Origin: Nanobdellota archaeon | GTDB taxonomy: Archaea > Nanobdellota > Nanobdellia > Woesearchaeales > JAHWHD01 | Direction of reading: 5' to 3' | Length of the DNA: 44,457 nucleotides | Assembly: GCA_034722435.1 (NCBI GenBank) | Contig: JAYENX010000015.1 | Span: 1 to 44,457, forward strand | Shown: piece by piece, positions 4,922 to 44,457 of the stretch | Numbering within the stretch: the first letter of the stretch is position 1 | Layout of the letters: every line of letters begins with the position of its first letter | Translations under genes and position numbers: made by a program | The notes under the pieces: model-generated | The model's database searches: none | The model's input: only the letters and a program-made list of their open reading frames with translations | Told to the model about the DNA's origin: nothing

Positions 4922-6349
4922 ATGTCTAAAAAAACTCCTAAAGAATTATACAAAACACTTAATCCTAAACAAAAAGCTTATGTCAAACTTTCTTTAAGCA
5001 AACCTAAAAACGGAGAATATTTACTCAGTGTTTTCCATATTAAACCTGGAAAAGGCCACAACATTTTACAAGCTGCTTCAGAGGTTGCTGCAGAATCTTC
5101 TACAGGTACAAATTTCAGGGTAATGACTGAAACTCCTTTCTCTAGAGAAATGAACGCTTTAGTCTATAAACTAGACACAAAAAAGAACCTTATCTGGATT
5201 GCATATCCTTGGAGATTATTTGATAGAGTCGGTAATGTACAAAATATATTAACATACATAGTCGGAAACGTTCTTGGCATGAAAGAAGTTTTAGCTCTAA
5301 AACTTTTAGATGTTTGGTTCCCTCCAGCAATGCTAGAACAATACGATGGTCCTAGTTACAATTTAGACGATATGCGAAAATATTTGAAAGTTTACGATAG
5401 ACCTATACTCGGTACAATTGTTAAACCTAAAATGGGCCTCACATCTGCAGAATATGCAGAAGTATGCTACGATTTCTGGGCGGGTGGAGGTGACTTTGTT
5501 AAAAACGACGAACCACAGGCAAACCAAGACTTCTGCCCATATGATAAAATGGTTAAACATGTCAAGAAAGCAATGGACAAAGCTGTTAAAAAAACTGGAA
5601 GAAAAAAAGTACACTCTTTCAATGTTTCAGCACCAGATTTTGATACTATGATCCAAAGATGCGAAATGATAAAAAAAACAGGTTTTGAACCCGGAAGTTA
5701 CGCTTTTTTGATAGATGGCATAACTGCAGGCTGGATGGCTGTTCAAACTCTAAGACGACGTTATCCTAAAGTATTTCTTCATTTCCATAGAGCAGCACAT
5801 GGTGCATTTACACGTCCTGAAAATCCTTTAGGATTCACTGTACTAGTTCTTTCAAAATTTGCAAGACTTGCTGGAGCTTCAGGTATACATACCGGCACAG
5901 CGGGTATTGGTAAGATGCAAGGATCTCCTGCTGAAGACATTGTTGCGGCACACAATATTCAACATTTTAAAGCAAAGGGCCATTTTTTTGAACAAGAATG
6001 GGGCAAGATACCTGCAAAGGATGAAGACGCTATTAACTTAGTCCATCAAGACCTTGCACATCACGTAATTCTTGACGATGACGAATGGAGAGGCATGAAA
6101 AACTGTACACCTATAGTATCAGGTGGTCTTAATCCTACAAAACTTAAACCTTTCATTGATGCCTTGGGAAATGTAGATTTTATTACTACAATGGGTGCAG
6201 GATGCCATGCGCATCCAAAAGGTACAAAGGCAGGCGCAGCTGCTTTAGTTCAGGCATGCGAAGCTTTTATGAAAAGAATAAGTATCGAAGATTACGCAAA
6301 AAAACATAAAGAGCTCGCTCAAGCAATTAAATTTTTTGGCAAAAAGTAA
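4922..6349 (+). CDS. rbcL: Ribulose-1,5-bisphosphate carboxylase, form II/III
   Basis: AAESSTGT, KPKMGL, GGDFVKNDE (carbamylated Lys), HFHRAAHG, HTGTAGIGKM, SGGLNP, MGAG; closely resembles Methanococcoides burtonii form II/III as I recall it, including the C-terminal insertion. Confidence 0.95.
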   Translation: MSKKTPKELYKTLNPKQKAYVKLSLSKPKNGEYLLSVFHIKPGKGHNILQAASEVAAESSTGTNFRVMTETPFSREMNALVYKLDTKKNLIWIAYPWRLFDRVGNVQNILTYIVGNVLGMKEVLALKLLDVWFPPAMLEQYDGPSYNLDDMRKYLKVYDRPILGTIVKPKMGLTSAEYAEVCYDFWAGGGDFVKNDEPQANQDFCPYDKMVKHVKKAMDKAVKKTGRKKVHSFNVSAPDFDTMIQRCEMIKKTGFEPGSYAFLIDGITAGWMAVQTLRRRYPKVFLHFHRAAHGAFTRPENPLGFTVLVLSKFARLAGASGIHTGTAGIGKMQGSPAEDIVAAHNIQHFKAKGHFFEQEWGKIPAKDEDAINLVHQDLAHHVILDDDEWRGMKNCTPIVSGGLNPTKLKPFIDALGNVDFITTMGAGCHAHPKGTKAGAAALVQACEAFMKRISIEDYAKKHKELAQAIKFFGKK

Positions 6350-29371: not shown

Positions 29372-29621
29372 TCAATATCCCTAAATAAATTAAATAGGTT
29401 ATAGTATATAAATGTTTATTTTAAAGAATGTGATAAAATAATAATCTTACTTTAGAAATGTGTTTATGCGTAGCAAATTAAATGTATGAGAGACTAAGAA
29501 TCCAATATTTCTAAAAAAAATAACTTAAAGTTTTTTAAATTTAACATACACAATTATACATTTTTTTTACTATAAGAAATCAAGAAATAAAACAAAACAA
29601 TAACATCACTCAAAAAATTAA

Positions 29622-30197
29622 TTAATAATATTCCATAATATCTCTAACTTTCTTTGAAATCTGATTATCCACATCATATAATTTATCTAATAAAGATAAA
29701 CAAGCATCAATTCCTGCCGTAATTCCTGCTGAAGAAATAATTTTTCCGTCTTCAATATATTTAACATTTTCACATACTTGTATTTTTGAATATGCCTTCA
29801 ACAAATCTATTGCCCCTTTGTGAGTTGTAGATTTTCTATTATCAAGTAACCCTGCTTCGGCTAATAAAAGAGATCCGGTACAAACAGATAAAAAATATTG
29901 TGCATTTTGATAATGCTCATGTAAAAATTTAATTGTACTTAAATTGTATCTTTCTCGTCTACTTGAAGGACCACCAGGAATAACTAAAACATCTAATGAA
30001 GGAGAAGTCACATAACTAAAATCAGGTATAACCCTGGTACCATTTCCACAAACAACTTCTTGCAAAGATTCTGAAATTCTAGAAATATCATTAGAACTAT
30101 CAGAATTTAAAAAGAGATTAGCAATAGATAAAACTTCAAGTGGACCTACAAAATCAAGTTCTTCAACACCATTATAAATTAATATTCCAATATTCAT
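29622..30197 (-). CDS. DJ-1/PfpI family protein
   Basis: GVEELDFVGP, LVIPGG, SVCTGS, SSAGITAGID. Confidence 0.9.
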   Translation of the reverse strand: MNIGILIYNGVEELDFVGPLEVLSIANLFLNSDSSNDISRISESLQEVVCGNGTRVIPDFSYVTSPSLDVLVIPGGPSSRRERYNLSTIKFLHEHYQNAQYFLSVCTGSLLLAEAGLLDNRKSTTHKGAIDLLKAYSKIQVCENVKYIEDGKIISSAGITAGIDACLSLLDKLYDVDNQISKKVRDIMEYY

Positions 30198-30352
30198 AAT
30201 CTAAATACGAATATCATCATCTTTAAAAGTTACTTTTACATTATCGTAAATTTTTCGAGTAATATTGCGTATAACATCACGGTTATTTAACGAGGCAGAA
30301 GGAGAAATCAAACCCCACAATATTTAAATACTTAAAATTAATTCTTGATTAT

Positions 30353-30826
30353 ATGCGAGAAATAAAATATGAAGATTTAGATGAAAAACAACGAAGAGTA
30401 TTAGATGAAGCTGAAAAAGTAATGACCACAGCATATAATCCGTATTCTAAGTTTTATGTTGGAGCTGCACTTTTATCCCAAGATGATCGAATAATTACAG
30501 GTTCAAATGTAGAGAATGCAGCGTACGGTTCTACAATATGTGCAGAAAGAGCAGCGATATTGAGAGCAAATGCTATGGGAATAAGAACATTTGATAAAGT
30601 AGGAATTATTGCAAGAGGGGAAAATTTTGACACAACTAAAGTAACTGCCCCATGTGGCAGTTGTAGACAGATGTTATATGAATCTGCTCAAATTTCAGAA
30701 AGAGATTTAGAAATAGTTATGGCGACAACTAAAAAAGATAAAGTTGTTGTGGCAACAATCAATGAACTTTTACCACTAGCATTTGGTCCAAAAGATTTGG
30801 GAATTGATGTTAGAAAATATAAATAA
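30353..30826 (+). CDS. cdd: Cytidine deaminase
   Basis: AYNPYSKFYVGAA, NVENAAYG, CAER, PCGSCRQ. Confidence 0.95.
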   Translation: MREIKYEDLDEKQRRVLDEAEKVMTTAYNPYSKFYVGAALLSQDDRIITGSNVENAAYGSTICAERAAILRANAMGIRTFDKVGIIARGENFDTTKVTAPCGSCRQMLYESAQISERDLEIVMATTKKDKVVVATINELLPLAFGPKDLGIDVRKYK

Positions 30827-30902
30827 TGACTTTAATTTCTAGTTAAAACTAACATCTGGATAAACAACATTTTATATATTAATAATTTCTTAAACTATCA
30901 CA

Positions 30903-31355
30903 ATGATTAAACTCAAACCATTCAAACAATCAAAAGGATATTGTGGACCTGCTTCATTAAAGATGGTTCTATCTGCTTATGGGATAAATAAATCTGAAAA
31001 ATATTTAGCTAAAACAACAAAAAGTAGTAGAACTAGAGGATGTGCTGAAGAAAATATTGTCAAAGCAGCAGAAAAATTAGGATTCAATGGATATGTGAAA
31101 CAAAATTCCTCAGTTAATGAAGTTAAAAAGTTAGTGAAAAAAGGAATTCCTGTAATTGTAGATTGGTTTTCTCCTGAAGAAGCAGGACATTATTCTGTTG
31201 TTATAGGCTTTGACAAAGATAGAATCATTTTAGCAGATCCACATTTTGGCAAATTAAAAAAACATAAAATTGAATGGTTCAAAGAAAGATGGTTTGATTT
31301 ACCTTTTGCAAAAAAAGGTCCACTTCTAAAAGAAATTATTGTAATACATCGATAG
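30903..31355 (+). CDS. C39-like cysteine peptidase
   Basis: QSKGYCGPASL, GHYSVVIG, ILADP. Confidence 0.8.
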   Translation: MIKLKPFKQSKGYCGPASLKMVLSAYGINKSEKYLAKTTKSSRTRGCAEENIVKAAEKLGFNGYVKQNSSVNEVKKLVKKGIPVIVDWFSPEEAGHYSVVIGFDKDRIILADPHFGKLKKHKIEWFKERWFDLPFAKKGPLLKEIIVIHR

Positions 31356-31574
31356 CGCGCCAAGTCCAATTGAAACTAACATCACAATTAAGAGATATGT
31401 GAAGATTAAGGCAACCCACAGAAATTCGATTTGGATGAAATCCCTATATAGAACTGACATCAGAATTACGTCTAACTCCAAAGAAAAGTTTAGGGAAATC
31501 GCTTAACAATTTAGCAAAAGCAACCTAATTTTTCCTTTAATTACCTCCAAATTCTTTGACCCTATAACGAAGGA

Positions 31575-32774
31575 TCAAACTACGTCCGCAGAGGCAAGAG
31601 AATTCTTACTAACCCAAGATAAAATTAAAAAATATACGAAGAAAAGGAATAAACCTACACCCATCATCAAAAACGCAGCAGAAGGAGTATAGATGTCCGT
31701 AAAATACCCTATTAATGGCGCAAAAACTGCATACATTAAATTTCTTGACATACTTTGTATAGAAATTACTGTTGCACGATGATGAGAATCAGTATGTTTA
31801 TTTATTCCTTTATTTACTAAAATATCTCTAACTCCACATACAAATGATATTATACAAATCAATATTAAAACAGATAATTTATTAACAAAAAATATTCCAA
31901 TAAAAGATAAGCTAGCAATTAATAAAATTAAGATTAATAATCTATTTTTTTTTGTTCTTCTTGTGATTTTTCCAGCGGCTAAATTTCCTAATCCTGCTGT
32001 AAAAAAATATAAAGATATTGCAATACCAACTATATATTTTGGAAATGTACTTTGCTCATAGAATGGTTGAATTAGAAACCAAGTTATATGCCCGAGCGCT
32101 GCAAACAACCCAAAGTAAATTATAAGATTTTTAACATATTTATGATTATAAGAAAACTTAATTGCTTCAATAAGATGTTTATAGTAATTCTTCTTATGAA
32201 CCTTTTTATGTATTGGAGGTTCTTTAAACCATAAACCTATAACGAATGCTAGAAAGAAAAGGAAGGCCGAAATAAAGAACAAATTTCTATACCCTAGATA
32301 GATTGCTAAAAACCCGCCCGCAAGCGCTAAAATTGACCAAGTCAATTGAGAATAGAAATTACCTCTACCAAAAATCTTAGCGTATTGATTTTCTTTTTCT
32401 AACTCTTTTAATGAATCATATAATAATGCAGAATCTGCACCTGATCTTAATGCCCAGCAAAAGGCAATAACCACCATTGCGATTAAAAAAGTCCAATAAT
32501 TAGTTCCAAATCCAAAGATTACATAACTTATTGAAGCACAAAGCATGGCTAATGCAACAGATAATTTTCGTCCTACTAAATCTGCAAACACTCCGCTTGG
32601 AACTTCCAGCATTAAAACTACTACAACAAAAATAGTTTGTAGTGACATTACCTGTGTCATCGATAAATAATTTGCTAAAAGAAATAATACAAATGTAGAA
32701 ACAGTAAAATCCAAAGTACTAACTACTCTGAATAAATAGAATTTCCAGATATTAGACTCGTACGCATTAGCCAT
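31575..32774 (-). CDS. MFS transporter
   Basis: About 12 TM segments, LEVPSGVFADLVGRK, SGADSALLYD; start set at MANAYES. Confidence 0.9.
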   Translation of the reverse strand: MANAYESNIWKFYLFRVVSTLDFTVSTFVLFLLANYLSMTQVMSLQTIFVVVVLMLEVPSGVFADLVGRKLSVALAMLCASISYVIFGFGTNYWTFLIAMVVIAFCWALRSGADSALLYDSLKELEKENQYAKIFGRGNFYSQLTWSILALAGGFLAIYLGYRNLFFISAFLFFLAFVIGLWFKEPPIHKKVHKKNYYKHLIEAIKFSYNHKYVKNLIIYFGLFAALGHITWFLIQPFYEQSTFPKYIVGIAISLYFFTAGLGNLAAGKITRRTKKNRLLILILLIASLSFIGIFFVNKLSVLILICIISFVCGVRDILVNKGINKHTDSHHRATVISIQSMSRNLMYAVFAPLIGYFTDIYTPSAAFLMMGVGLFLFFVYFLILSWVSKNSLASADVV

Positions 32775-32916
32775 TTCTCGTCGAGAAAAACAGCACAATT
32801 TATAAATATTACCCATTCGTCGTCGGCAATCACCAACTTACCGTCGAGAAAATCAGCAATCTTTATAAAGTTTTCCCGGCTTCTCGTCGATAATAAACAT
32901 TTTGGAGGAATAAAAA

Positions 32917-33300
32917 ATGAAAGAAGAATTAATGAACGCAGATTTAAGGACTAGAATTGAAACGGAATTACAAAATAAAGATATTTTAAAAAAAATCAAG
33001 ACTGTTGCAAGAAATCTTGGAAAGGAGAATAAGGATAACGAACAAACCATCCATATATTCCAAGAAGGAGACATTAGTATAAATTATTGTTTTTGGTGGA
33101 GAGGGCCTTATGTTCGGATTAATGGCGGAACTGTTTTTGAGGACCATGCCTGTCTTACATATCACGGAATTCCAGTGTATCAATTTGACGAAAACTTAAG
33201 AACACCAAATATCAGTAGATTCAGTCCTGGAGAATGGGAGAAAGAGCTACAAACATTATATGAGAGAGGATTACAGGTTGAAAATAGCCGTAATAATTGA
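32917..33300 (+). CDS. Hypothetical protein
   Basis: ORF track; SD GGAGG. Confidence 0.55.
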   Translation: MKEELMNADLRTRIETELQNKDILKKIKTVARNLGKENKDNEQTIHIFQEGDISINYCFWWRGPYVRINGGTVFEDHACLTYHGIPVYQFDENLRTPNISRFSPGEWEKELQTLYERGLQVENSRNN

Positions 33301-33456
33301 TTAGTCTCAAGCATTCGAAGTTTTCGACTTAAACAATCAGTAGTTTATTTAGTAACTTCCCCCTTTAATTTGAATGCTAGTTAATCTCAATCTGATAAGA
33401 CATTGTGTTGGCAAGATAGACTCTCCGTTACAATTTTCGTTAACAACGAAAATCCT

Positions 33457-33465
33457 GTTAATTGC
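33457..33465. repeat. Right core of a decayed cassette-boundary hairpin (GTTAATTGC)
   Basis: Exact reverse complement of GCAATTAAC at 33901-33909. Confidence 0.7.
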
Positions 33466-33532
33466 CCCGAGCCGTTAGGCGAGAACGCAGCGTGGTCGAG
33501 GAGCGAAGCGACGAAGAAGTCACAATTTCTCG

Positions 33533-33850
33533 CTACTTATCAAATTTGAAATTCTTATGAATCTCCTTATCATATCTTTCCCAATTAAGTGTCTTTCTAA
33601 GAATTACATGAACAGTATTTTTTGTAAAGATAAAGTATACAATAAAATTCTCGGTTTCTTTATGGAAATACATTTCTCCAGATTCTATATAAAACGCATA
33701 TGAATGAATATTTTTGGCATCATCTTCATAAAGATTATCATAAATATCAAAAATTAAATCAATTTGTTTTAGCGTTTCATCTCCAGGAGAAATTTTATAC
33801 CACATGACATCATCAGTGTTACTTAAACCGAGGATTTTTTCTTTGCTCAT
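33533..33850 (-). CDS. Hypothetical protein
   Basis: Start set at MSKEK; TTTATAAA about 25 nt upstream. Confidence 0.6.
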   Translation of the reverse strand: MSKEKILGLSNTDDVMWYKISPGDETLKQIDLIFDIYDNLYEDDAKNIHSYAFYIESGEMYFHKETENFIVYFIFTKNTVHVILRKTLNWERYDKEIHKNFKFDK

Positions 33851-33902
33851 GTAATTAGTTAATAATTGGGGATTTATAAATCTTGCGAGAAATTGTAATT
33901 GC

Positions 33903-33922
33903 AATTAACATCGCTGTTATAT
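33903..33922. repeat. Minimal cassette-boundary site AATTAAC-ATCGCT-GTTATAT
   Basis: Left core, ATC and right core with only 6 nt between cores. Confidence 0.6.
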
Positions 33923-33990
33923 TTCCCGAAGGGCTGAAATTTAGTGCAACGTTCCGCAGGAAAATTTCAGAGTCGTCGTGTCTATATTTT

Positions 33991-34734
33991 TTATTGAGGG
34001 TTTCCGCCGTCTCTAGAAAGAACATATATAGAAACATCTCCTAGATGAAGTCCTTGTTTGGATTCAACCTTATGTTCTTGAGAAATTTTCAGTTTATATT
34101 TTTCTACATGGTTTGCAGGGTCATTTTCCTTTCCAGCAAAATGAAAATAAGGCATGATTATGACTCCGTCTTCTTTTAGACATTGAGGAATTTCTTTGAA
34201 AAATCTTTGTAGAAGTTCAGTACCTCCAAGCATACTTCTTCTCAACATTTCATCTTGATTTGGGTCACCTTCAAATTTTTCAGGTTCTTCAGAAAAAAAT
34301 GGATGATTGAATAAAACAACATCATAGATTCTGTTTTTGGGAAGACCATTAAATAAATCGCTTTGATAAACTTCAGCATTTGCAAGTTTATGTTGTATGA
34401 TATTTTTTTGGGTGTTGGCAACTGCTTTAGGATTAATATCTGCAAACGCAATAAATTTCGCTCCATATTTGGACATTACTATTCCTTGTGTTCCGGGTCC
34501 ACACCCAATATCAGCAACATCTTTTCCAGAATATAATTCTTGATGTTCATATAAAAATCTTGCAAGATGACTTGCAGTAGTAATAATGTCTGACCCAAAA
34601 ACGCCTCTTTCAATCAACAAATCAAGAGAAATATCTGTATTTTCATCTAATATTATATTCCTTATTCCTGATTCGCGTTGATGAGCATGTAATTGTTTTT
34701 TTACAAGATCATATTGTTCTTTAGTGAATGTCAT
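33991..34734 (-). CDS. N-type SAM methyltransferase (PrmC/HemK-like)
   Basis: VADIGCGPG, ADINPKA, SDLF, NHPF (NPPF-like); start set at MTFTK. Confidence 0.8.
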   Translation of the reverse strand: MTFTKEQYDLVKKQLHAHQRESGIRNIILDENTDISLDLLIERGVFGSDIITTASHLARFLYEHQELYSGKDVADIGCGPGTQGIVMSKYGAKFIAFADINPKAVANTQKNIIQHKLANAEVYQSDLFNGLPKNRIYDVVLFNHPFFSEEPEKFEGDPNQDEMLRRSMLGGTELLQRFFKEIPQCLKEDGVIIMPYFHFAGKENDPANHVEKYKLKISQEHKVESKQGLHLGDVSIYVLSRDGGNPQ

Positions 34735-34784
34735 AATGAAAGGAAGTATAAACTGATTTATAAATGTTAGGCGGAAAGAAAACA

Positions 34785-35117
34785 CTATTTTGTAAATATT
34801 TTAACTAATTTTTGCTCAACTTCTTTTACTTTTGAATTAGCTAGTGCTCCTGTTTTGTATAAGATTATGGCTTTGTCAGCTGTAAACAATCTATTAGGTC
34901 TGATCATACTTGTTAATTTCAAGTTTCCTTGCTTGAAATCATCATTCATAAGATTAATGGAATAATCATCAAATCTAGCTTCGCTTGTTATCTGAGCAAG
35001 AATTAAATCATCTCCTTGCAAATTAGCAACAACCAAAGCAGGTCTCTTCTTAGACCTACTCAAATCTGAAAAAGGAAATGGCAGAATAACAACGTCTCCC
35101 TTTACAAATTCTTCCAT
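34785..35117 (-). CDS. PemK/MazF family toxin
   Basis: KGDVVILPFPFSDLSRSKKRPALVV, QITS. Confidence 0.92.
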   Translation of the reverse strand: MEEFVKGDVVILPFPFSDLSRSKKRPALVVANLQGDDLILAQITSEARFDDYSINLMNDDFKQGNLKLTSMIRPNRLFTADKAIILYKTGALANSKVKEVEQKLVKIFTK

Positions 35118-35350
35118 GCTTCATCATCCTCTTTGCTATTCCAATCTTTAGCTAAAACCTTTTCACTAGCTATAGCAGTAGCCATTCTCTCATTTATTTG
35201 TTTCATTGTCCTTAATTCAATATGATCTTCAAAGGCCAAAATAGCTACTTTAGTTCCAGTTTTGAAGCCTTCAGCTTCCCTAATATCCTTGGGAATAGCA
35301 ATTTGTCCTTTTTCAGTTATTGTAGCAGTTTTCATTTCAACTATTGGCAT
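35102..35350 (-). CDS. AbrB/MazE family antitoxin
   Basis: ITEKGQIAIPKDIRE; C-terminal EDDEAWKNL; overlaps the toxin gene. Confidence 0.9.
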   Translation of the reverse strand: MPIVEMKTATITEKGQIAIPKDIREAEGFKTGTKVAILAFEDHIELRTMKQINERMATAIASEKVLAKDWNSKEDDEAWKNL

Positions 35351-35446
35351 AATATCACCTTTCTTACAAGTAAGAAGTGTAAGAAATATATAAATGTTTC
35401 GTTTTCTTTCCGCCTATTTTCCTTTTTCGGATAAATCCTGAATTAC

Positions 35447-35525
35447 GTATAACATCGGAATTTAACGAAGGCGATTTGGGTGGAGAAACCTGTAAGGTTT
35501 CGGAACCGTTAAATTCCTGTAAAAC
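35447..35525. repeat. attC-like hairpin site (79 bp)
   Basis: GTATAACA-TC-GGAATTTAACG ... CGTTAAATTCC-TGTAAAAC. Confidence 0.7.
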
Positions 35526-35745
35526 GACCCTACGCGCCCACTCTCAGCGTCTGTACATATCAAATTCTGTTTTAACTGTAGGCAAATTGGGCGAGTAAAC
35601 TCTTTGACGTGCCATACGCGCCCATATTGTATAAAATGGCTAAACTTCTATTTAAGCTCTTCCCCCGTTTGACGAATTTAACTCGCTTTTGAAGTTTTTA
35701 GAAGTCGTAGTGGTTACGGGGTTTAATAGAAATAAAAAATGAAAA

Positions 35746-36210
35746 TTATTCAATAACAATTTTAGGACTATCTTTGAAACATTTCGGTGCAATAATTCCT
35801 TTACCGCGAACATCAAAACATTGTGCAACCTTTTGAATTACTTTAAAGTATTCTTCTTTATCTTTAACCCTTAATTTGACAAGATAATCATAATCTCCAG
35901 TTGTATAAAATACTTCTTGTACTTGAGGGATTTTAGATAATTGTTTTGCGGGTTTTTCTAAATCAACTTCCTTTCCAAGCTTTGCTTGACCAAAAACAAA
36001 TGCTACATAACTTTTATCTAATTTTTCAGGTTCAACGATAACTGTAAAACCTTTAATTACGCCCCATTCTTGTAATTTATTTATTCTTGCCTGTACTGTA
36101 GAAGTTGGAATTTTTAATTGGTGTGCAATTTTTGTAATTCTTGGAACACACAAATCCTTATCTTGGATTAATTTCAATATTTTCTTGTCTATAGGTTTTA
36201 TTTTATCCAT
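35746..36210 (-). CDS. Lrp/AsnC family regulator
   Basis: IDKKILKLIQ..IAHQL..STVQARINKLQEWGVIKGF; V.EVFYTTGDYDYLVKL. Confidence 0.9.
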   Translation of the reverse strand: MDKIKPIDKKILKLIQDKDLCVPRITKIAHQLKIPTSTVQARINKLQEWGVIKGFTVIVEPEKLDKSYVAFVFGQAKLGKEVDLEKPAKQLSKIPQVQEVFYTTGDYDYLVKLRVKDKEEYFKVIQKVAQCFDVRGKGIIAPKCFKDSPKIVIE

Positions 36211-36338
36211 TTTTTTATTATATTAATGTATATTATATGTAAATATAAGTATTATTTATATACTTTACGTAAAAATTAGCATAAAATTAATATTAATTGT
36301 ATAGTATCCTAATTTATAATACTTTGGAGGATGAAATC

Positions 36339-36650
36339 ATGAAAAAAATAACCCGATTTGTAGGAAAAAGAATCACAATTGATGGAGTTATAGGTACTAT
36401 TTATCAAGAACAAGAAAGGGGGTTTTGTGAATTTGTAAATAGAGACCAGATCGCAATCAAAACCATAAAAATAGCAAGTAGATATCTTAAAAATAATGGT
36501 GAAAGAAATTACAAAATTAAAGATAAATTTTTAGATTCAGTAATTGCATCTAAAGAAACGTATGGCTCATTAATTGCACACTGGAGTGGATATTATCCTT
36601 GCGGCAATTATCTTAGACGTGATCAAGAATTAAAAAACGCAGGAATTTAA
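36339..36650 (+). CDS. Hypothetical protein
   Basis: Start set at MKKIT with SD GGAGG. Confidence 0.5.
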   Translation: MKKITRFVGKRITIDGVIGTIYQEQERGFCEFVNRDQIAIKTIKIASRYLKNNGERNYKIKDKFLDSVIASKETYGSLIAHWSGYYPCGNYLRRDQELKNAGI

Positions 36651-36690
36651 TATTTATTTTTTTCTTTCCCGTACCCAACCCATAATTCTT

Positions 36691-36697
36691 GTTAAAC
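36691..36697. repeat. Orphan right core GTTAAAC
   Basis: CTTGTTAAAC context as at 43283-43292; complementary to 37689-37695. Confidence 0.55.
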
Positions 36698-36756
36698 CGC
36701 TTAAAGGTGTCTACAAAAACGCAATATTTAAATATGTAGACACCTTATAATTATAT

Positions 36757-37650
36757 ATGTTCTTAGAAATACGAAAGATTGGAGAAAGTAAAAAATACTA
36801 TCTTGTGCATACATATAGAATAAAAAGTAAAGTAAAAAGGATTTCTAGGTATTTAGGGTCTAATTTAACTAAGAAGGAATTGAGTCAATTACAAAAACAG
36901 GCAGAGCAGGAAATTCTGGAGGAGATTAAGGAAAAGAATATTCTTGAATTTGAGCTTACAAAAGAAGAAATAGAAGAGTATAAGAAATATGAAAAAGATA
37001 TTAAAATCCAACATTTGCAAAAGTTAAACTGGAAAAGATTTACTGCTAATTTTACATATAATACTAATGCTATAGAAGGCTCAACTGTTCTTCTGTCAGA
37101 AGTTAAAGAGTTACTAAGTGGAGAGGAAAAACCTCATGATAATGAGGAAATTGAAACCTTGAATGTAGCAGAAGCAATTGATTTTATTAAAACTTCTAAA
37201 CAAAAAATTACTGTTGCATTTATCAAAAAATTGCATAAGATTTGTTTTAATGGCACTAAAGGATTTGCAGGCAAATTAAGAGATGTTAATGTAATTATAA
37301 GAAATGCTCAAGGAGATATAATTCACGAAGGTGCTCCGATTAAACAACTTCAACCATTGCTTAAAGAGCTTTGTAAATGGTATTTCAGTCATAAAAACAA
37401 ATACCCTCCGCTGTTACTTGCAGCTGTCATGCATAACCAATTTGAAAAAATACACCCATTTCAAGATGGTAATGGGAGAGTTGGCCGGTTATTGCTAAAT
37501 TATGTTCTTTTAAAGCATAATTATCCACCTATAAATATAAGACTCAGAGATAGAGTAAAATACTACCATTGTTTACATGAATATGACCATAAGAATGATA
37601 TTAAGACAACTTTAAAGTTTTTAATTTCTCAATATAAGAAACAGTTCTAG
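36757..37650 (+). CDS. Fic domain protein (class II, internal inhibitory motif)
   Basis: HPFQDGNGRVGR active motif; TNAIEG inhibitory motif. Confidence 0.93.
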   Translation: MFLEIRKIGESKKYYLVHTYRIKSKVKRISRYLGSNLTKKELSQLQKQAEQEILEEIKEKNILEFELTKEEIEEYKKYEKDIKIQHLQKLNWKRFTANFTYNTNAIEGSTVLLSEVKELLSGEEKPHDNEEIETLNVAEAIDFIKTSKQKITVAFIKKLHKICFNGTKGFAGKLRDVNVIIRNAQGDIIHEGAPIKQLQPLLKELCKWYFSHKNKYPPLLLAAVMHNQFEKIHPFQDGNGRVGRLLLNYVLLKHNYPPINIRLRDRVKYYHCLHEYDHKNDIKTTLKFLISQYKKQF

Positions 37651-37688
37651 GTGTCTACAAAGTAGAGTGTAGACACCCTTCTAATTGC

Positions 37689-37845
37689 GTTTAACATTAG
37701 GTTGAATAGACGTTTTACGTAAGTGTTACGTAATTATTGTTAAAGAGATTAAAATATGCACGCTGTTTTCTTGAATGTATGTAAAAAAAATATAACCTTG
37801 GAAAGAGAAAAAATAGAAATGGCGAGGCGAATGGTTGTTAAGTGA
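37689..37845. repeat. Degenerate attC-like site
   Basis: GTTTAACATT ... TTGTTAAGTGA; interior pairing is partial. Confidence 0.5.
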
Positions 37846-37901
37846 CCCGGACGAAGTGAGAGCGCAGCGTGGCAAGGAAAATCTTTGATTTTCCGCAGAG
37901 T

Positions 37902-38642
37902 TTATTTGCCCCCACATACAAAAGTGTATTTTAAGGATTTGCCAACCCAATCTTTTTCTTCAAAATCTGTGCTTTTTACAACTTCAATAAGATTCAACCC
38001 TGCTGATTTTATTTCAGAAAGAGCTTCTTTTTTAGTATAAAAATGTAAAAACATTTTTTCTTGCATTTTTGTTTCTGGATTATTAGCTTCAATCCAAGTA
38101 TCACCTAATTCTTCATCAGGTTTCTTGAATATTGCTCCAATTTCTTTTTTCGTCCAAAACCACCAAAACTTAAATCCACTTTTCCGTTCGTGTGTAGTAA
38201 AAAACATAACCCCTTTTGGTTTCAGAAAATTCTTGCATTGTTTTAGTAATTTAATCCTATTATTTATTCCTTTAATATGCTCAATCGTTTGAGTTGGAAG
38301 CATAATATAATCAAAAGAATTTTCTGGATAATTTAATTTTGTAATATTTTTAGCAATAAATTTAGTATTAGATATTTTATGTTTTTTAGCATATTCGTTT
38401 GCATACTTAATCATATTTGGAGCAATATCAACGCCAATAATTTCAAATCCTCTTTTTGCAAGAACAAATGCTTCTCTTCCCGCACCACAGCCAAGATCTA
38501 AAATCTTTTCTTTGGATTTGAAATATTTATCAATAACATATTTTTCAGTTTCTAATAATCCATGCTTGATTATTTTAGCATAGTGTTCTACTTCCCTTTT
38601 TGAATCAAATGTTTTTTTTACACTTTGGGTTGAATCTGACAT
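37902..38642 (-). CDS. Class I SAM-dependent methyltransferase
   Basis: ILDLGCGAGR, GVDIAP, FDYI. Confidence 0.9.
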   Translation of the reverse strand: MSDSTQSVKKTFDSKREVEHYAKIIKHGLLETEKYVIDKYFKSKEKILDLGCGAGREAFVLAKRGFEIIGVDIAPNMIKYANEYAKKHKISNTKFIAKNITKLNYPENSFDYIMLPTQTIEHIKGINNRIKLLKQCKNFLKPKGVMFFTTHERKSGFKFWWFWTKKEIGAIFKKPDEELGDTWIEANNPETKMQEKMFLHFYTKKEALSEIKSAGLNLIEVVKSTDFEEKDWVGKSLKYTFVCGGK

Positions 38643-38705
38643 ACTATTAAGATTGGGTTGGCATTATATAAATTTTCTTATAATTAGTGGGGGCAAATAA
38701 ATTTC

Positions 38706-38890
38706 ATTTAACATCAGTTTTAAACGACCCGATAGGGCTCGAAGGCGAAGCCATCGAGGGTTCAATTCTGACCTCGAGACTCCTTTAAAGTGAGGCTCGA
38801 GCTGGAAGAATTGAATCTGGGTAAAATTGGGGAAATCGCTTGGCGATTTAGGCTATGCCGACCCAATTTTCCGTTTAAAACTTGTTAAAT
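38706..38890. repeat. attC-like branched hairpin site (185 bp)
   Basis: ATTTAACA-TC-AGTTTTAAACG ... CGTTTAAAACT-TGTTAAAT with several internal stems. Confidence 0.8.
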
Positions 38891-39213
38891 ACCTTTACCC
38901 TACGAAGTGGGGTAAAGTTGCGTCCGCAAAGTAAAATTTCCATTTCTTATCAATTCTGCCGAAGGCAGACTATATGTGCGTAGCACTGGGGAGTTCAGTT
39001 CTTTCTAATAAGCGAAGCATTACATCAAGAACAAGTATCAAGGGGGAGTTCGTTACATCAAAGCCGAAGGCTCTTTTAGTTAGTACATTCAGGGGAGTTC
39101 CGTTCAATTAATGCAAACACAGTGAGCTATCAACAACAAGTATTATGAGGTAAAAAACAGCATATTCATTTAAAAGCAAATATTTATTAATATTTGAGTA
39201 TTTATTATATATA

Positions 39214-40720
39214 CCTGACCTCGCCACTTCTTAAAAAGAAATAAAATCTCCCATAGTGTTTGGTGAAACCCTATGAGAGAAAATGTTAATTTTGCTATAG
39301 GCAATATAGCATTGATGGATAAAGTAGACCACAAATTTAATTTTTTCGGTCAACTCTTTGGTAGTGTAGTAAACAAAGCTAAAAACCTAAAGGAAGATGC
39401 TAAGTTGTTCATGTACAATCGACTTGGAAAATGCGTATCTATAAATCAGATTTTATCTGTTTATCCTCTTGAAACCTTTGAGTATCTTGGCTTCAAAGAT
39501 GCGCCAAAAGAAAGAACATTGTACAGAGACTTGGAACGTATTGGCTTATACCACAAATTCATCATAAGCAAATACCAGCAACTCATAAAGAAAAATGATC
39601 TTGTTTCAAAAGAGCAGTTTCCTGATTTCTCCTCAAGTTATTTCGAAGGTAAGAAGTCTGAACTTAGCAAGTTAGGCTACTCCAGAGATCATATGCCTGG
39701 GAAAGAACAGCTTACATGGGGAATTAGTACAGGTTCCAACAACATCCCTACGGCATTGACAATCCAAAAAGGCAATGTCCAGGACAAAAAGCATTTCAAA
39801 TTTATGCTTAAAACAGTGAGCAAGGTGCTGGATAAAGAAGATGTTCTTGTCTTTGATTGCGGTGGCAACACTAAGAAGAACAAGAAAAAAATTAGAAAGC
39901 TTAAGTTTCATTATCTTACACTCAAAGCAAAGAAAAAGAAAACATACAAGAAATATATACAGCTTTTCAAGATAGGAAAAAAGCAGAAAATCAGCTTAAA
40001 TGGAAATTATTATGAATGCGTTAAAATAAGAGAAGAAGATGAGATAAAATACATCTTCTTCTCTAAAAAACTATACAAAGACCAGATTAAGAAGAGGAAA
40101 AAGAAGTTTAAGAAAGAACTTGAAAAGAATGAAAGCAAGCTTACTAAAGTAAAGAAAGGCAAATCTTTCTCAACCTGTATCTCAAGAGAAGGTTATATCG
40201 TAACCAAAGGCTCTTTGCAGAAAACTCTGGATGGAATAAAAAACCCTTTCATAACTGGATTAGAAGGCTACTTCATCCTTGAATCATCTTTGGATGATGA
40301 GCCAGAGAAGGCTCTTATCTTATACAAAGACAGAGACAAATCTGAAAAGCTTATCAGAGACATGAAAGAAGGAACAGAGCTTAGGCCAATAAGGCATTGG
40401 AGCAAGTGGGCTATTATTGGTTATCTTGTGATAATTTTCCTCACAAACTGCCTGATTAATTTGACACTTTATTTAGCTGAGAACCCCATCGTGAAAAACG
40501 TAAAGTTACTCAAAAAATTCCTTAACAATTTGACACTTACTGTGGTATATCCAAGAAATAGGTTTAGATTCACTATTTTGGCTAACGATTCTGAAGAAAT
40601 GAGGTCTGTTTTAGGGGATTGGCTGGATAAATACAGGGATAAATCATTAGAATTACGCTGGTAAAGCTGAATGGCGAAATGGGTTAGGGCATTTGTTTAG
40701 TTAGAGATGGCGAGGTCAAG
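39214..40720 (+). mobile_element. IS1634-family insertion sequence, 1507 bp
   Basis: TIRs CCTGACCTCGCCA / TGGCGAGGTCAAG; 6-bp duplication TATATA at 39208-39213 and 40721-40726. Confidence 0.9.
39273..40664 (+). CDS. IS1634-family DDE transposase
   Basis: [15 protein letters not shown]...[24 protein letters not shown]. Confidence 0.88.
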
Positions 40721-40728
40721 TATATAAT

Positions 40729-40959
40729 ATGGCAAAAAACCCAAAACTAACTCAAAATGAGATAAAGGTCTTAAAAAAACTTATTGAACAGGCCAGGGTT
40801 TCAGATACTGAAATTGCTAAAAATATGTCCATTTCTCAACAAGCAGTATATCAGATAAGAAACCGCCTCGAGGAATTAGGAGTAATTAAGGGATATATGC
40901 CTATTATTGATTTTAAAAAAATTGGAATAAATTTGCTATTTAAGGTAACATTTAAATAA
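40729..40959 (+). pseudogene. Truncated Lrp/AsnC regulator (HTH only)
   Basis: ARVSDTEIAK..ISQQAVYQIRNRLEELGVIKGY; ends after 76 aa; cut off from its promoter by the IS. Confidence 0.6.
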
Positions 40960-41005
40960 AATTAAAGTTACTTTAAAAGCAGAAAGACAAAGAAAGTTTT
41001 AAGTT

Positions 41006-42694
41006 GTGGTTGCAATGAAAGACATTAAAACTAATGAATCAAAAAGAAAATTTGGAAGAATCAAAGAAATTGCAGGAGTTTTAACTAAATCTGGCTTTGG
41101 ATATATTGTAGAACGAATACAGCTAAAGAGGAAATTGCCATTTCTTAAGAGGCTCTCGCATTATGAATCTTTGGAGGAATTAGACTCAACAGTGCCGGAA
41201 AGAGTTAGATTTGTGTTAGAGGAGCTAGGCACAACTTTTATTAAATTTGGCCAGATATTAAGCACGAGGCAGGATTTGATTGGAGAAGAATTTGCAAAAG
41301 AATTTGCCAAACTGCAGGACAATACGCCACCATTCTCATATGAGCTTGTTAGAACAACAATTAAAGAAGAAGTTGGCCGTTCGATTGATTCTCTATTTGA
41401 AGAATTTAACAATAAACCCCTGGCATCAGCTTCAATTGGGCAGGTACACAAGGCAAAGTTAAAAAACGGCAAAATTGTTGCTGTTAAAATCCAAAGACCA
41501 GGAATTGAAGAACAAATCAAAGAAGATATTAATATAATGCGGAAGCTGGCAAAATTAATTGAGAAGCATATCCCTGATTGGAAATACTTCAATCTTCCAG
41601 TTGTTATTGATGAGTTTGAGCGTTCTATTAAAAAAGAGTTAAACTATATCCAAGAAAAGACAAACATGAATAAATTCCAAAGCATGTTTGAAGATGATGA
41701 AAACATTGTTGTCCCGAAAGTTTATGATGAATATTTAACAAGACGAGTAATCATAACTGAATTTATCGATGGGGTTAAAATAAGCGAGCTATCCAAATCC
41801 AAAAGACATTTTAATAAACAATTGATTGCAAAGAGGGGTGCGGAAGCTTTTTTTAAGCAGGTTTTGGTTCATGGATTTTTTCATGCAGATCCTCATCCTG
41901 GCAACCTATTAGTATTAGAACAGAATCGCATTTGTTTTTTAGATTTTGGAATGGTAGGTCATATTGATAAGGAATTTATGGATAATCTTGCACAGTTATT
42001 TGTATTTCTCATTGATTACAATGTTAACGGCTTAATTAATCAGCTTACTAATATGGGTTTCATTAATGAAACTATTGACATTAAATCATTTAAGTACGAT
42101 ACCATGGATATAATGGATTTATACCACGGTGCTCAGTTGAAAGATATACGGCTTGGAAAAATAATCAGTGAGCTTATGATGCTATTGGTTAAATATAATA
42201 TAACTCAGCCAAAAGAGATAATCTTGCTAAGCAGAGCGTTAATTATCATTGAAGGTATTGGAAAAGACCTTGATCCTGAATTTAATATAGTTGTTGTATG
42301 CAAGCCATATGCAAAGAAAGTAATCAGGCAAAGAATAAGCCCCAGAAGGATTATGGACATAATAAAAGATGACTTTTTTGAGTTTGAACATTTTATAAAA
42401 ATACTTCCAAGAACTATGAAAGAGATATTTAGTAAGATTGCCCTTGGTAAAATCAATATTGAATTTGAACATAAAAACCTCGATAGGTTTTCAAGTAACT
42501 TAGAAAGAATCAGCAATAAAGTTTCTTTTGCATTAATAATATCTGCACTGATTGTTGCTTCATCACTTATAATGCAGACTGACAAAGGGCAACTCCTTTT
42601 TGGGTTTCCTATACTGGGTATAGTCATATTTTTCATAAGTGCTATAATGGGATTAGGATTAGTTATTTCAATAATTAGATTCAAAAAAATGTAA
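41006..42694 (+). CDS. UbiB/AarF/ABC1 family atypical kinase
   Basis: IKFGQILSTRQD, ASASIGQVH, VAVKIQRP, FHADPHPGN, LDFGMVG. Confidence 0.95.
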   Translation: MVAMKDIKTNESKRKFGRIKEIAGVLTKSGFGYIVERIQLKRKLPFLKRLSHYESLEELDSTVPERVRFVLEELGTTFIKFGQILSTRQDLIGEEFAKEFAKLQDNTPPFSYELVRTTIKEEVGRSIDSLFEEFNNKPLASASIGQVHKAKLKNGKIVAVKIQRPGIEEQIKEDINIMRKLAKLIEKHIPDWKYFNLPVVIDEFERSIKKELNYIQEKTNMNKFQSMFEDDENIVVPKVYDEYLTRRVIITEFIDGVKISELSKSKRHFNKQLIAKRGAEAFFKQVLVHGFFHADPHPGNLLVLEQNRICFLDFGMVGHIDKEFMDNLAQLFVFLIDYNVNGLINQLTNMGFINETIDIKSFKYDTMDIMDLYHGAQLKDIRLGKIISELMMLLVKYNITQPKEIILLSRALIIIEGIGKDLDPEFNIVVVCKPYAKKVIRQRISPRRIMDIIKDDFFEFEHFIKILPRTMKEIFSKIALGKINIEFEHKNLDRFSSNLERISNKVSFALIISALIVASSLIMQTDKGQLLFGFPILGIVIFFISAIMGLGLVISIIRFKKM

Positions 42695-42711
42695 AATGGA
42701 GGTAAACAAAA

Positions 42712-43014
42712 ATGGTAGATTTGTTAAAAAAAGGTTTAATGCTTGGTCTTGGTATTACTACCATGACCAAAGAAGCAATAGAGAAGACTGTGAAAGATTT
42801 ACAAGAGAAGGGAGAGATTAATACAAAAGAAGGCAAAAAGATGGTTGAAAACTTGCTGAAAAAGTCTAAAAAACAAAGTGAAGAAATAATGAAGAAAGTT
42901 GATGAGAGAGTGAAAAAAGTTTTGAAAACAATGCCCGTAGCAACTAAAAACGACCTTGAATCGCTTCATAAAAAGATTGACCAGCTAATAAAGAAAGATA
43001 AAAAGAAGAAATAA
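42712..43014 (+). CDS. Phasin-like helical protein
   Basis: KKGLMLGLG..TMTKE..E..V..L..KGEI; ATKNDL. Confidence 0.7.
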   Translation: MVDLLKKGLMLGLGITTMTKEAIEKTVKDLQEKGEINTKEGKKMVENLLKKSKKQSEEIMKKVDERVKKVLKTMPVATKNDLESLHKKIDQLIKKDKKKK

Positions 43015-43209
43015 GTGATTTTTTCTTATTTCTTCTTTTTGTAATACAATTAGTTTGCATCTCGATAAAAAATAGACTAGTAATATGAGAACTCCCCCTT
43101 AAGTTTAAAATTGTCCCGTTCTAATTAAATTTCTTTTTCAAAGAAAAAGACTATATGTCCGCTAGGACGAACTCCCCCTTGTTTTTTAAAAAAATGGAAA
43201 TTTTATTGT

Positions 43210-43292
43210 ATTTAACATCGCGGATTAAAAAAAGTTCGCGTAGCGAATTTGGGAAAAATCAGCAAGATTTTTCTTTTTAATCCTTGTTAAAC
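43210..43292. repeat. attC-like hairpin site (83 bp)
   Basis: ATTTAACA-TCGC-GGATTAAAAA ... TTTTTAATCC-T-TGTTAAAC. Confidence 0.8.
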
Positions 43293-43419
43293 TCCCCCGA
43301 ACGAAAGTGAGAGGTCGCAGACCGTGGGTCGAGCGAAGCGAAGAAGTCGAGAAAGAGTGCGTTCTATCCAAAAGAGCGAATGCGATACATCAAGAACAAC
43401 AATCAAAAGGGAACAAAAT

Positions 43420-44373
43420 TTATTTGAATAACTTCTCATAAAATTTCTTTCTTCCAATTACATCAATTTCATCAAGTGCATTAGATAATATTTTAAACAA
43501 ATCTTTTCCTTTCCATTTGTCATACATTAACCAAGACATTATCATTAATGCTGCAAATTTAAATGCATCAAAAAGATGTTCTTTTTCTGTTTTTGTTAAA
43601 GGACTAATTTCTTCGTATGAATTTACAATTTTTTTAGCAATTGAAAAATCCATTTTATTAGTATAAAATCTTGCCCAGTACAAAATCAGGATTCCTATAT
43701 CGTGAATTCTATATCCATAATGTGAATCATCAAAATCAAGAATTCCTGAAATTTCATTATTATGAAATTTAACATTGGATTTATCAAAATCACCATGTAC
43801 AATGCTTTTAGTTAAGTTTGTTGGAAAATTTATTGTATCTAATTGAGATTTTATAATATTATATCTAAATTTTCCTTTATCTTTATCTTCAAATCTCTTC
43901 TTCTCTTCTTTAGTAGCTTTAATGCAAAAATCTTTACTTCTTGGTTCTTTGTGAATATAATTATTTACATCATAATTTTTAGTTAATTTATGTAGTAAAG
44001 CTAATTTATGAACTAATTCTTTAAATTGAATATTATTAAGATTTTTCAAATGTCTTCCAGATATATATTCAAAAATGATAAATGGTTTCTTATCAAATAT
44101 CCCGATAAATTGATGCTTTTTATTTTCAATTGGTTTTGCAATTGGATATTTTTTCTCTGAAAGAAATTTTAAAAGTTTGGCTTCAAAGTCTACTCTTTTT
44201 TTGGTTCTATTTTCATAGTATCTTAAAACAAATTTACCTTTTGTTGTTTTAATTAAAATATTTGTTTGAACATAGCCCGCCTTGAAAGGTTTTGATTCTT
44301 TAAAATCTCCAATGTCGTAATTGTCTAATATTTCTTGAAAAACTTTTTTGGTAAAATTTGTTTTAACAGCCAT
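43420..44373 (-). CDS. Homoserine kinase type II / aminoglycoside-phosphotransferase-like kinase
   Basis: GYVQTN, FVLRYYE, IVHGDF...NV, ILDFDD. Confidence 0.85.
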   Translation of the reverse strand: MAVKTNFTKKVFQEILDNYDIGDFKESKPFKAGYVQTNILIKTTKGKFVLRYYENRTKKRVDFEAKLLKFLSEKKYPIAKPIENKKHQFIGIFDKKPFIIFEYISGRHLKNLNNIQFKELVHKLALLHKLTKNYDVNNYIHKEPRSKDFCIKATKEEKKRFEDKDKGKFRYNIIKSQLDTINFPTNLTKSIVHGDFDKSNVKFHNNEISGILDFDDSHYGYRIHDIGILILYWARFYTNKMDFSIAKKIVNSYEEISPLTKTEKEHLFDAFKFAALMIMSWLMYDKWKGKDLFKILSNALDEIDVIGRKKFYEKLFK

Positions 44374-44444
44374 AACTTAATCTGATTCTTAGAAGTATAT
44401 AAATTTTGTTCCCCCTACCATTTTTTTAGCCCTCTTTCTCGATT

Positions 44445-44457
44445 GAGTTTAACATCG
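44445..44457. repeat. Left core of the next cassette-boundary site (cut by window end)
   Basis: GAGTTTAACATCG; reverse complement of GTTAAACTC at 43286-43294. Confidence 0.75.

Follow-up and report, generated by a model that had tools for sequence, protein, structure and literature searches.

Integron-like gene cassettes in the chromosome of a woesearchaeal DPANN archaeon and a dedicated Xer paralogue as their probable recombinase

The last third of contig JAYENX010000015.1 (44,457 nucleotides (nt), hereafter the window) of a Nanobdellota archaeon of the order Woesearchaeales (assembly GCA_034722435.1) consists of small, unrelated gene modules separated by hairpins, which an initial annotation had interpreted as an integron-like array of gene cassettes. 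The window is the entire contig C15 of a genome of 1.3 Mb in 60 contigs with a completeness estimate of 94.5%. We conclude that the region is probably a chromosomal array of mobile cassettes. It would belong to an integron-like system with a wide distribution in this DPANN order, for which a dedicated Xer paralogue is the most likely enzyme. The integron-like character is borne out by the complementarity of module flanks, both here and in eight other genomes. Nevertheless, the earlier reading needs qualifying, as the system departs from canonical integrons: neither this genome nor 121 genomes of its order yielded an IntI integrase, the array-linked recombinase is an Xer-type paralogue, the terminal site is dif-like and the genes face both ways.

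The sites between the modules have a left core built on TAACA and a right core built on TGTTA, and they all point the same way. TAACAT is present in 11 intergenic copies on the + strand between 29542 and 44450 and in none on the − strand of the same range, and TAACATC occurs 20 times in the window against 7.4 expected, a count that none of 100 shuffles reached. ATTG is conserved four bases upstream of every left core. The attC core consensus (RYYYAAC/GTTRRRY) is matched exactly by four of the six left and four of the six right cores, the others being one base off. Complementarity was scored over the 6 nt outside AAC/GTT for the 720 possible pairings of the six left with the six right cores. 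The module-flanking pairs total 31 of 36 matches, the single highest score, whereas cores within one hairpin match at only 2-4 of their 6 outer positions, and none of 189 control TAAC/GTTA pairs from outside the array reach 6/6. The complementarity of module-flanking cores is therefore far better than chance, and the start of a cassette is complementary to the inverse core of the cassette's own site. All six core pairs listed in the initial annotation were recovered in place with identical match counts, and its remark that the cores of one hairpin can mismatch also holds. Because the crossover would fall in the core, the cores flanking a module are complementary while those of one hairpin are not necessarily so.

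The same relation was found in the arrays of eight other genomes, where 18 of 37 left cores have a perfect 10-nt complementary right core at most 7 kb upstream (13 at 0.7-2.4 kb, five at 4.4-6.4 kb), compared with 0 of 37 in the mirrored downstream control for the same left cores. One of these genomes, G001, contributes an array from the same genus and is unpublished; without it, the counts are 13/32 upstream and 0/32 downstream.

Copies of the same cassette in different surroundings indicate where the exchange takes place. A metagenome scan with the 21 bases from the contig end returned nine contigs, in which this 21-mer continues into different sites. Two of them, L123 and L124, carry copies of the last cassette of the window, which encodes an APH-type phosphotransferase. 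Aligned by BLAST (a free-end global aligner gave a baseline of 70-75% in this AT-rich DNA), L123 is 90% identical to the window over 1072 nt, spanning the whole APH gene, L124 is 84% identical over 636 nt, and the two share 87% identity over 637 nt. All three alignments end 3 nt past TAACA, and beyond this point the sites and cassettes differ. In addition, contig C14 of the host genome combines the left flank of site S1 with a hairpin resembling that of S3 (site names as in Table 1). The sequences thus switch at the left core, and the hairpin is carried along with the DNA on its right-hand side. Copies of the Fic module stand in unrelated contexts that lack cores in G015, G025 and the unpublished G002, and their homology to the window ends 9-12 nt inside the two cores of the module. 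The proposal that the modules are shufflable cassettes thus stands: in the metagenome contigs the APH cassette has other neighbors, and the change occurs at the core.

Two sets of genomes were used to study the sites, 30 relatives searched at the DNA level with the array sequence and 121 genomes sampled across the order. The intergenic elements of the array recur in many genera of the former set at 77-95% identity, often several per contig, and the cassette genes gave few matches; two small contigs of the host genome, C14 and C35, were also matched. The common architecture begins with ATTG, three variable bases, WTAACA, a 2-nt TC bulge and a stem of 10-13 bp followed by GAAGT, which is conserved although unpaired. 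It continues with small stem-loops, the returning stem and TGTTAW with three variable bases and a C, and most right cores are then followed by a GC-rich element. Short forms without a hairpin are found at 33898 in the window, in G022 and G020 and in metagenome contigs. A strict 23-nt site pattern is present in 23 of the 121 genomes and its reversed control in none; the sites form a family conserved across this order of Woesearchaeota-like DPANN archaea.

Folded as single strands, S1 and S2 have a basal stem made by the two cores, and no shuffle among 200 folds as well as either of them (DNA folding energies of -18.3 kcal/mol, z = -5.2, and -51 kcal/mol, z = -8.5, respectively). The folds of S3 and of the hairpin at 33430-33458 are weaker, yet above those of their shuffles, and the fold of S6 (37684-37747) is indistinguishable from shuffled sequence (z = -1.6 and -2.1; 16 and 6 of 200 shuffles at least as good). 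In an alignment of 21 sites from 8 genomes, S1 among them, the second stem shows compensatory changes at 10 of 11 pairs with 94% of cells paired, a percentage inflated by the selection of sites for having the stem, and its score was reached by none of 500 shuffles. Slid registers of the alignment collapse, the core is invariant, and the outer three bases are paired within a site in only 53% of cells. Together with the S1 and S2 folds, this covariation indicates a two-stem site whose structure is conserved beyond its sequence. At gathering thresholds, no Rfam family, attC included, matched anywhere in the window. A scan of the host genome with a strict structural grammar found the right spacer only in S1 and S2; there is therefore no second large array, and true sites are confined to C15, C14 and C35. 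The latter two contigs hold three further sites (C14 at 4191; C35 at 2081 and 255), share a terminal repeated segment and probably represent other fragments, either of this array or of another.

A recombinase gene is linked to the arrays in relatives. In G008, G020 and G030 a variant site ends the array directly upstream of a gene for a tyrosine recombinase of 270-278 amino acids, on the strand of ATTG...TAACA. A public-genome search for proteins of at least 59% identity, here called the site-linked clade, gave 15 loci with at least 150 nt of upstream sequence, 13 of which have a same-strand site upstream. Its distance from the start codon is 101-159 nt in 11 loci, 358 nt in L039 and 1,892 nt in L054. 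No same-strand site was found upstream of the gene in the other two of the 15 loci (L048 and L057). Longer contigs of the clade carry up to six further sites upstream of the gene; off-pattern sites amount to one on the opposite strand upstream and, downstream, one on the same and four on the opposite strand. Many of these genes sit at a contig end on the array side, as expected because a repetitive or variable array adjoins them. The terminal sites of relatives consist of two 11-bp arms and a 6-bp spacer, the layout of Pyrococcus abyssi dif (PMC2958812), and that of L045 matches the latter in 10/11 and 8/11 arm positions with a 6-bp spacer. The window sites keep the left arm only, as ATTG and the left core read as an 11-nt dif-type arm followed by the central region.

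The array-linked proteins align continuously with P. abyssi XerA (1e-45 to 1e-47) and in two pieces with VchIntIA, 41 residues standing opposite 86, so that about 45 residues are absent around patch III, which we take to be the location of the IntI-specific domain. They are thus Xer-family recombinases without extra domains. The curated XerA model gives them 217-222 bits (cut-off 220), compared with 246-281 for the second, housekeeping paralogues of the same genomes and 236 for the protein encoded on contig C2 of the host. In a maximum-likelihood tree (in which L074 has a very long branch, probably an effect of ORF extraction, and was disregarded), the housekeeping XerA clade including C2 has a support of 100/99 and the site-linked recombinases fall outside it in two groups; no member of the housekeeping clade has a site within 400 nt upstream. 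Paralogues at 37-48% identity mostly lack a nearby site, with the exception of L073, L075 and L082, which make up the second site-linked group.

The host genome itself encodes four tyrosine recombinases, though none is of the array type. The C2 protein alone exceeds a curated cut-off, that for archaeal XerA, and its identity is 46-50% with the housekeeping type compared with 40-41% with the array type. C2 being of the housekeeping type, the array's own recombinase is absent from the assembly, in which the contig breaks inside a site. The recombinases of C24, C25 and C31 were considered as array enzymes and rejected, being only 23-32% identical to either Xer type and having no sites nearby. No contig end overlaps the end of C15. 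Since the site at the break is of the cassette type, one or more further cassettes lie past the contig end. A dif-like pattern search of the host genome was too noisy in AT-rich sequence for the chromosomal dif to be named. A candidate for the chromosomal dif of the housekeeping XerA is a dif-like sequence (two 11-bp arms, 6-bp spacer) shared by the end of C22 (41940) and the start of C47 (42).

It is unlikely that the window holds an ordinary integron array, of the kind known as clusters of attC sites lacking integron integrases (CALIN), served by a true IntI that is unassembled or acts in trans, with the neighboring Xer genes as bystanders. The near fit of the cores to the attC consensus, the two-stemmed hairpin and the complementary ends would all suit such an array, whose head would be missing where the contig stops inside a site. 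Ghaly et al. 2022 (PMC9668308) reported integrons from 75 metagenome-assembled genomes (MAGs) of archaea, mostly arrays without integrase, and their genome table includes MAGs of Woesearchaeales and Pacearchaeales that have 2-4 attC sites but lack IntI. IntI was called in that study only upon a match to an IntI-domain profile, and an Xer-type gene beside an array would therefore go unrecorded. On the other hand, the integron integrase model TIGR02249 matched above cut-off none of the four tyrosine recombinases of the host and nothing in the 121 genomes of the order; all matches are split and skip the IntI insert, and an integrase with the IntI-specific additional domain was accordingly not found in either set. 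The Xer paralogue, which has its own tree groups, is fixed in position and orientation beside the special terminal site in at least 14 loci. A 2-nt bulge in place of an unpaired central spacer and genes on both strands are likewise non-canonical.

Slightly less likely still is the alternative that the sites are double-stranded dif-like Xer sites, comparable to the pdif of Acinetobacter, with hairpins that are incidental palindromes or accessory and no folding of single-stranded DNA. The left arm does look like that of P. abyssi dif, the terminal site is a simple dif-like sequence of 28 bp, the short forms are made up of two arms only a few bases apart, and the unpaired GAAGT is conserved. However, compensatory changes and not sequence identity preserve the second stem, and exchange between directly repeated sites would leave the complementary ends of cassettes unexplained. 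The sites, moreover, all share one orientation, in relatives as in the window, whereas pdif sites alternate, and the classes of triloop are strand-biased. On the ATTG...TAACA strand, hairpins with a GNA triloop number 37 against 7 of the mirror class TNC (11 against 2 in the window spacers), with C-GAA-G the commonest. GNA-type triloops such as C-GAA-G are unusually stable in single-stranded DNA, and the + strand is thus likely to be the folded one.

Xer recombinases cut at the border between arm and spacer, and IntI cuts between A and C of AAC. By analogy, cleavage may occur on the + strand between TAA and C, which agrees with the observed breakpoints. The designation of the minus strand as the top strand is supported by the relatives, in which the recombinase gene and the terminal site lie at the matching end. 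Read on the other strand, their layout of a divergent integrase, a docking site with a GTTRRRY core and then cassettes is the usual integron order.

That the hairpins are miniature inverted-repeat elements, repetitive extragenic palindromes, terminators or small RNAs without any cassette biology is very improbable and largely refuted. They do lie between genes, have palindromic sequences, recur in several genomes and are GC-rich within an AT-rich genome. However, their orientation stays constant and does not follow that of the neighboring genes, and they are linked to a single recombinase clade. Their outer bases pair with those of a site one module distant rather than with the opposite end of the same hairpin, the homology of cassette copies breaks exactly at the core, and no Rfam family matches.

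In the mechanism that we propose, each cassette would combine a single recombination site with one to four genes that have promoters of their own. The cores would pair when the strand folds and, with the second stem, mimic a dif-like duplex. Recombination inside the invariant TAACA/TGTTA core would join cassettes, with each cassette keeping its own variable bases at both ends. The array would start, as in relatives, at a double-stranded dif-like site about 100-160 nt upstream of the dedicated Xer-family gene, the product of which most likely inserts and excises the cassettes.

Several points weigh against this interpretation. Excision, circular cassettes and catalysis by the paralogue are predicted from sequence comparison, as are single-strand folding and present activity of this array. 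The assembly holds no array-type recombinase, and its only Xer protein is the housekeeping one of C2, with no site beside its gene. Recombination between double strands is possible, given the existence of short forms and the likeness of the left half of the site, together with GAAGT, to a double-stranded dif-like site. The distal third of the array is decayed, and part of the array may be a fossil. In bacterial attC sites, extrahelical bases are on the other arm of the recombined strand, and the position of the bulge disagrees with the strand assigned here from triloop bias and breakpoints. Bacterial attC sites also have an unpaired central spacer of about 5 nt per side, where the present sites have the 2-nt TC bulge after TAACA and none on the other arm. 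The bulge adjoins the putative cut, and the geometry is not simply that of attC. As for the data, requiring the stem favored paired sites in the covariation alignment, although the compensatory changes are unbiased, and unpublished G001 supplies 3 of the rows and 5 of the 18 complementary matches.

The setting of the array is chromosomal. The first 29 kb of C15 carries archaeal core genes, among them genes for aIF2-gamma, an eIF-2B-family protein and the RuBisCO large subunit, and protein searches gave relatives labelled Woesearchaeota, Nanoarchaeota or Pacearchaeota; the array therefore sits in the chromosome of a DPANN archaeon, as the initial annotation had assumed. The RuBisCO large subunit, encoded here at 4922-6349, is known from the nucleotide-salvage pathway of DPANN archaea. 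A tRNA scan of the window found none. Several Woesearchaeota-like contigs among L036-L038, L046 and L074 have been deposited as 'uncultured Methanosarcinales', and one contig in this group, with the recombinase and three sites, was binned as Thioploca; both assignments probably reflect mislabelling or mis-binning.

Table 1 Features of the cassette array (window coordinates)
Feature	Position	Strand	Content or basis
Whole cassette array	29372-44457	.	Directional intergenic TAACAT, flank complementarity, mixed unrelated cargo
Left arm of cassette-type site cut by contig end	44442-44457	+	ATTG-NNN-WTAA, then CATCG
APH cassette	43216-44452	−	APH-type phosphotransferase gene 43420-44373 (Pfam APH); S1 and GC-rich element 3'
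Site S1	43205-43294	+	Left arm, TC-containing bulge, 10-bp second stem, two small stem-loops, right core
GC-rich element	43295-43419	+	Small GNA-triloop hairpins after right core; read directly
4.5-kb cassette	38712-43215	.	S2, 250-nt conserved non-coding leader, open reading frame ORF463 (no family), helix-turn-helix protein, ABC1 kinase, phasin-like protein
Site S2, long form	38701-38892	+	11-bp second stem, branched top; found in structural scan
Methyltransferase cassette	37695-38711	−	Class I S-adenosylmethionine-dependent methyltransferase gene 37902-38642
Weak site	37684-37845	+	Left arm intact, hairpin poor, two candidate right cores (37738, 37836)
Composite cassette	35453-37694	.	Lrp/AsnC regulator (−), ORF117 (+), Fic (+)
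Site S3	35442-35527	+	Complete hairpin; right core mutated (TGTAAAAC); close relative on C14 at 4191
Toxin-antitoxin cassette	33909-35452	−	Methyltransferase, MazF toxin, MazE antitoxin
Short-form site	33898-33924	+	Arms a few bases apart, without hairpin
Small cassette	33427-33908	−	ORF123 (no family), small hairpin, right core 33456-33465
Decayed distal part	29372-33426	.	DJ-1/PfpI, cytidine deaminase, C39 peptidase, major facilitator superfamily (MFS) transporter, ORF127, with site remnants between

The array is well formed from about 33427 to its run-off at the contig end and decayed before that (Table 1). The ends of the APH cassette and of the 4.5-kb cassette are complementary at 6/6 outer positions (10/10 with the invariant core), as is right core 33456-33465 to the left arm at 33898; right core 37836-37845 matches the left arm at 38701 at 5/6 (9/10 with the invariant core). 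An orphan right core (36690-36699) precedes the Fic module within the composite cassette. Elements similar to the GC-rich one after S1 lie at 33466-33532, 37846-37901 and 38893-38935, and the element recurs in relatives. In the distal part, left arms remain at 30264 and 31369 and TAACAT remnants at 29542, 29601 and 30850, and 31369-31590 is, on direct reading, a degenerate copy of S2 with its right flank. The cargo is mixed (Table 1), with MazEF, Fic, two methyltransferases in all, the MFS transporter, an ABC1 kinase with a phasin, the APH-type kinase and some ORFs without a family among its genes. Promoterless, co-oriented ORFs under a common promoter were not seen: seven modules are on the − strand and six on the +, and TATA-like boxes, read directly, lie upstream of the cassette genes, that of the APH cassette included.

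Some further observations concern individual cassettes. About 20 bases upstream of the ATTG arm at the contig end (TTTTTAGCCCTCTTTCTCG; 44420-44457) are common to unrelated cassettes in the nine metagenome contigs (L116-L124); for this subfamily of cassette ends, conservation reaches past the arm. The leader of the 4.5-kb cassette (38893-39140) holds three copies of GGGGAGTTC, and the opposite cassette end (43085-43185) two inverted copies (GAACTCCCCC), beside which stands a shared motif, GACTATATGTCC. The leader recurs in many genera at 77-90% identity, directly after right cores, but other genes follow it. The idea that this stretch (38884-39140) is simply a shared cassette was rejected, as no homologue of ORF463 comes after the copy in G020. 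A nested element and an RNA borne by the cassette are possible explanations of the leader. ORF463 (463 amino acids, no Pfam family) is bracketed by a 24-nt inverted repeat (39208-39231/40703-40726, 88% complementary). The Fic gene is accompanied by inverted repeats of its own, GGTGTCTACA/TGTAGACACC, which surround the promoter and follow the stop codon (36706-36745 and 37651-37678; also in L012 and L014), an arrangement suggestive of a regulated module that is complete in itself.

The accepted ancestors of integron integrases are Xer recombinases, and to our knowledge no system intermediate between Xer and integrons has been described. The arrays analyzed here represent a widespread DPANN platform for cassette capture with attC-like folding sites, an Xer-like recombinase and a dif-like docking site. 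If the enzyme is confirmed, the IntI-specific domain would be dispensable for cassette capture, the published integrase-less archaeal arrays would be explained, and a mechanism for accessory-gene turnover in tiny symbiotic archaea would be at hand. Integron-finding software, which requires the IntI domain, would then be missing a whole class of such platforms. We consider the chances about even that the system is a natural analogue of the integron, in which a dedicated XerA paralogue without IntI domain recombines folded single-stranded hairpin sites with a dif-like docking site. Such a system would represent a living link from Xer/dif to integrons or else a separate reinvention of cassette capture in archaea.

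The phage CTX integrates at dif as a folded single strand, and pdif modules on Acinetobacter plasmids are bounded by Xer sites. Here too, Xer-family enzymes would move accessory DNA, a folded strand may mimic a dif duplex, and the modules include resistance or toxin-antitoxin genes. Unlike the present system, CTX and pdif use the housekeeping XerC/XerD of the host; pdif sites alternate and have no hairpin, and CTX is a phage genome and not a row of cassettes.

Chromosome-dimer resolution by archaeal XerA/dif (Cortez et al. 2010, PMC2958812) involves the same recombinase family, and the left arm and terminal site resemble the 11+6+11 dif of P. abyssi. In contrast, the array-linked recombinase is a separate paralogue outside the housekeeping XerA clade, and whereas dif is not beside xerA in Thermococcales (PMC2958812), the site here stands at the head of a cassette array, with 100-160 nt between it and the gene. 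Arrays that lack an integrase have already been published for these orders (Ghaly et al. 2022, PMC9668308). Full-text literature searches on integrons in Woesearchaeota and on Xer with cassettes and hairpins in archaea gave no description of the link between array and Xer, and a tyrosine-recombinase survey mentions only an Xer-related group from candidate phyla.

The closest likeness is to integrons, which share the row of unrelated cassettes, imperfect hairpin sites with AAC/GTT cores and a two-stem fold, complementary cassette ends, a tyrosine recombinase gene divergent from the array beside a simpler double-stranded site, and a cargo rich in toxin-antitoxin, Fic and methyltransferase genes. 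The differences are that the array-linked recombinase is an XerA-family paralogue without the IntI-specific segment and the terminal site is dif-like, that a 2-nt bulge takes the place of the unpaired central spacer, with ATTG and a GC-rich element flanking the cores, and that the genes lie on both strands with their own TATA-like boxes instead of being co-oriented behind one promoter. The element is thus integron-like in its working but departs from integrons in integrase, site geometry and gene orientation, and it is best described as an Xer-type variant of the integron.

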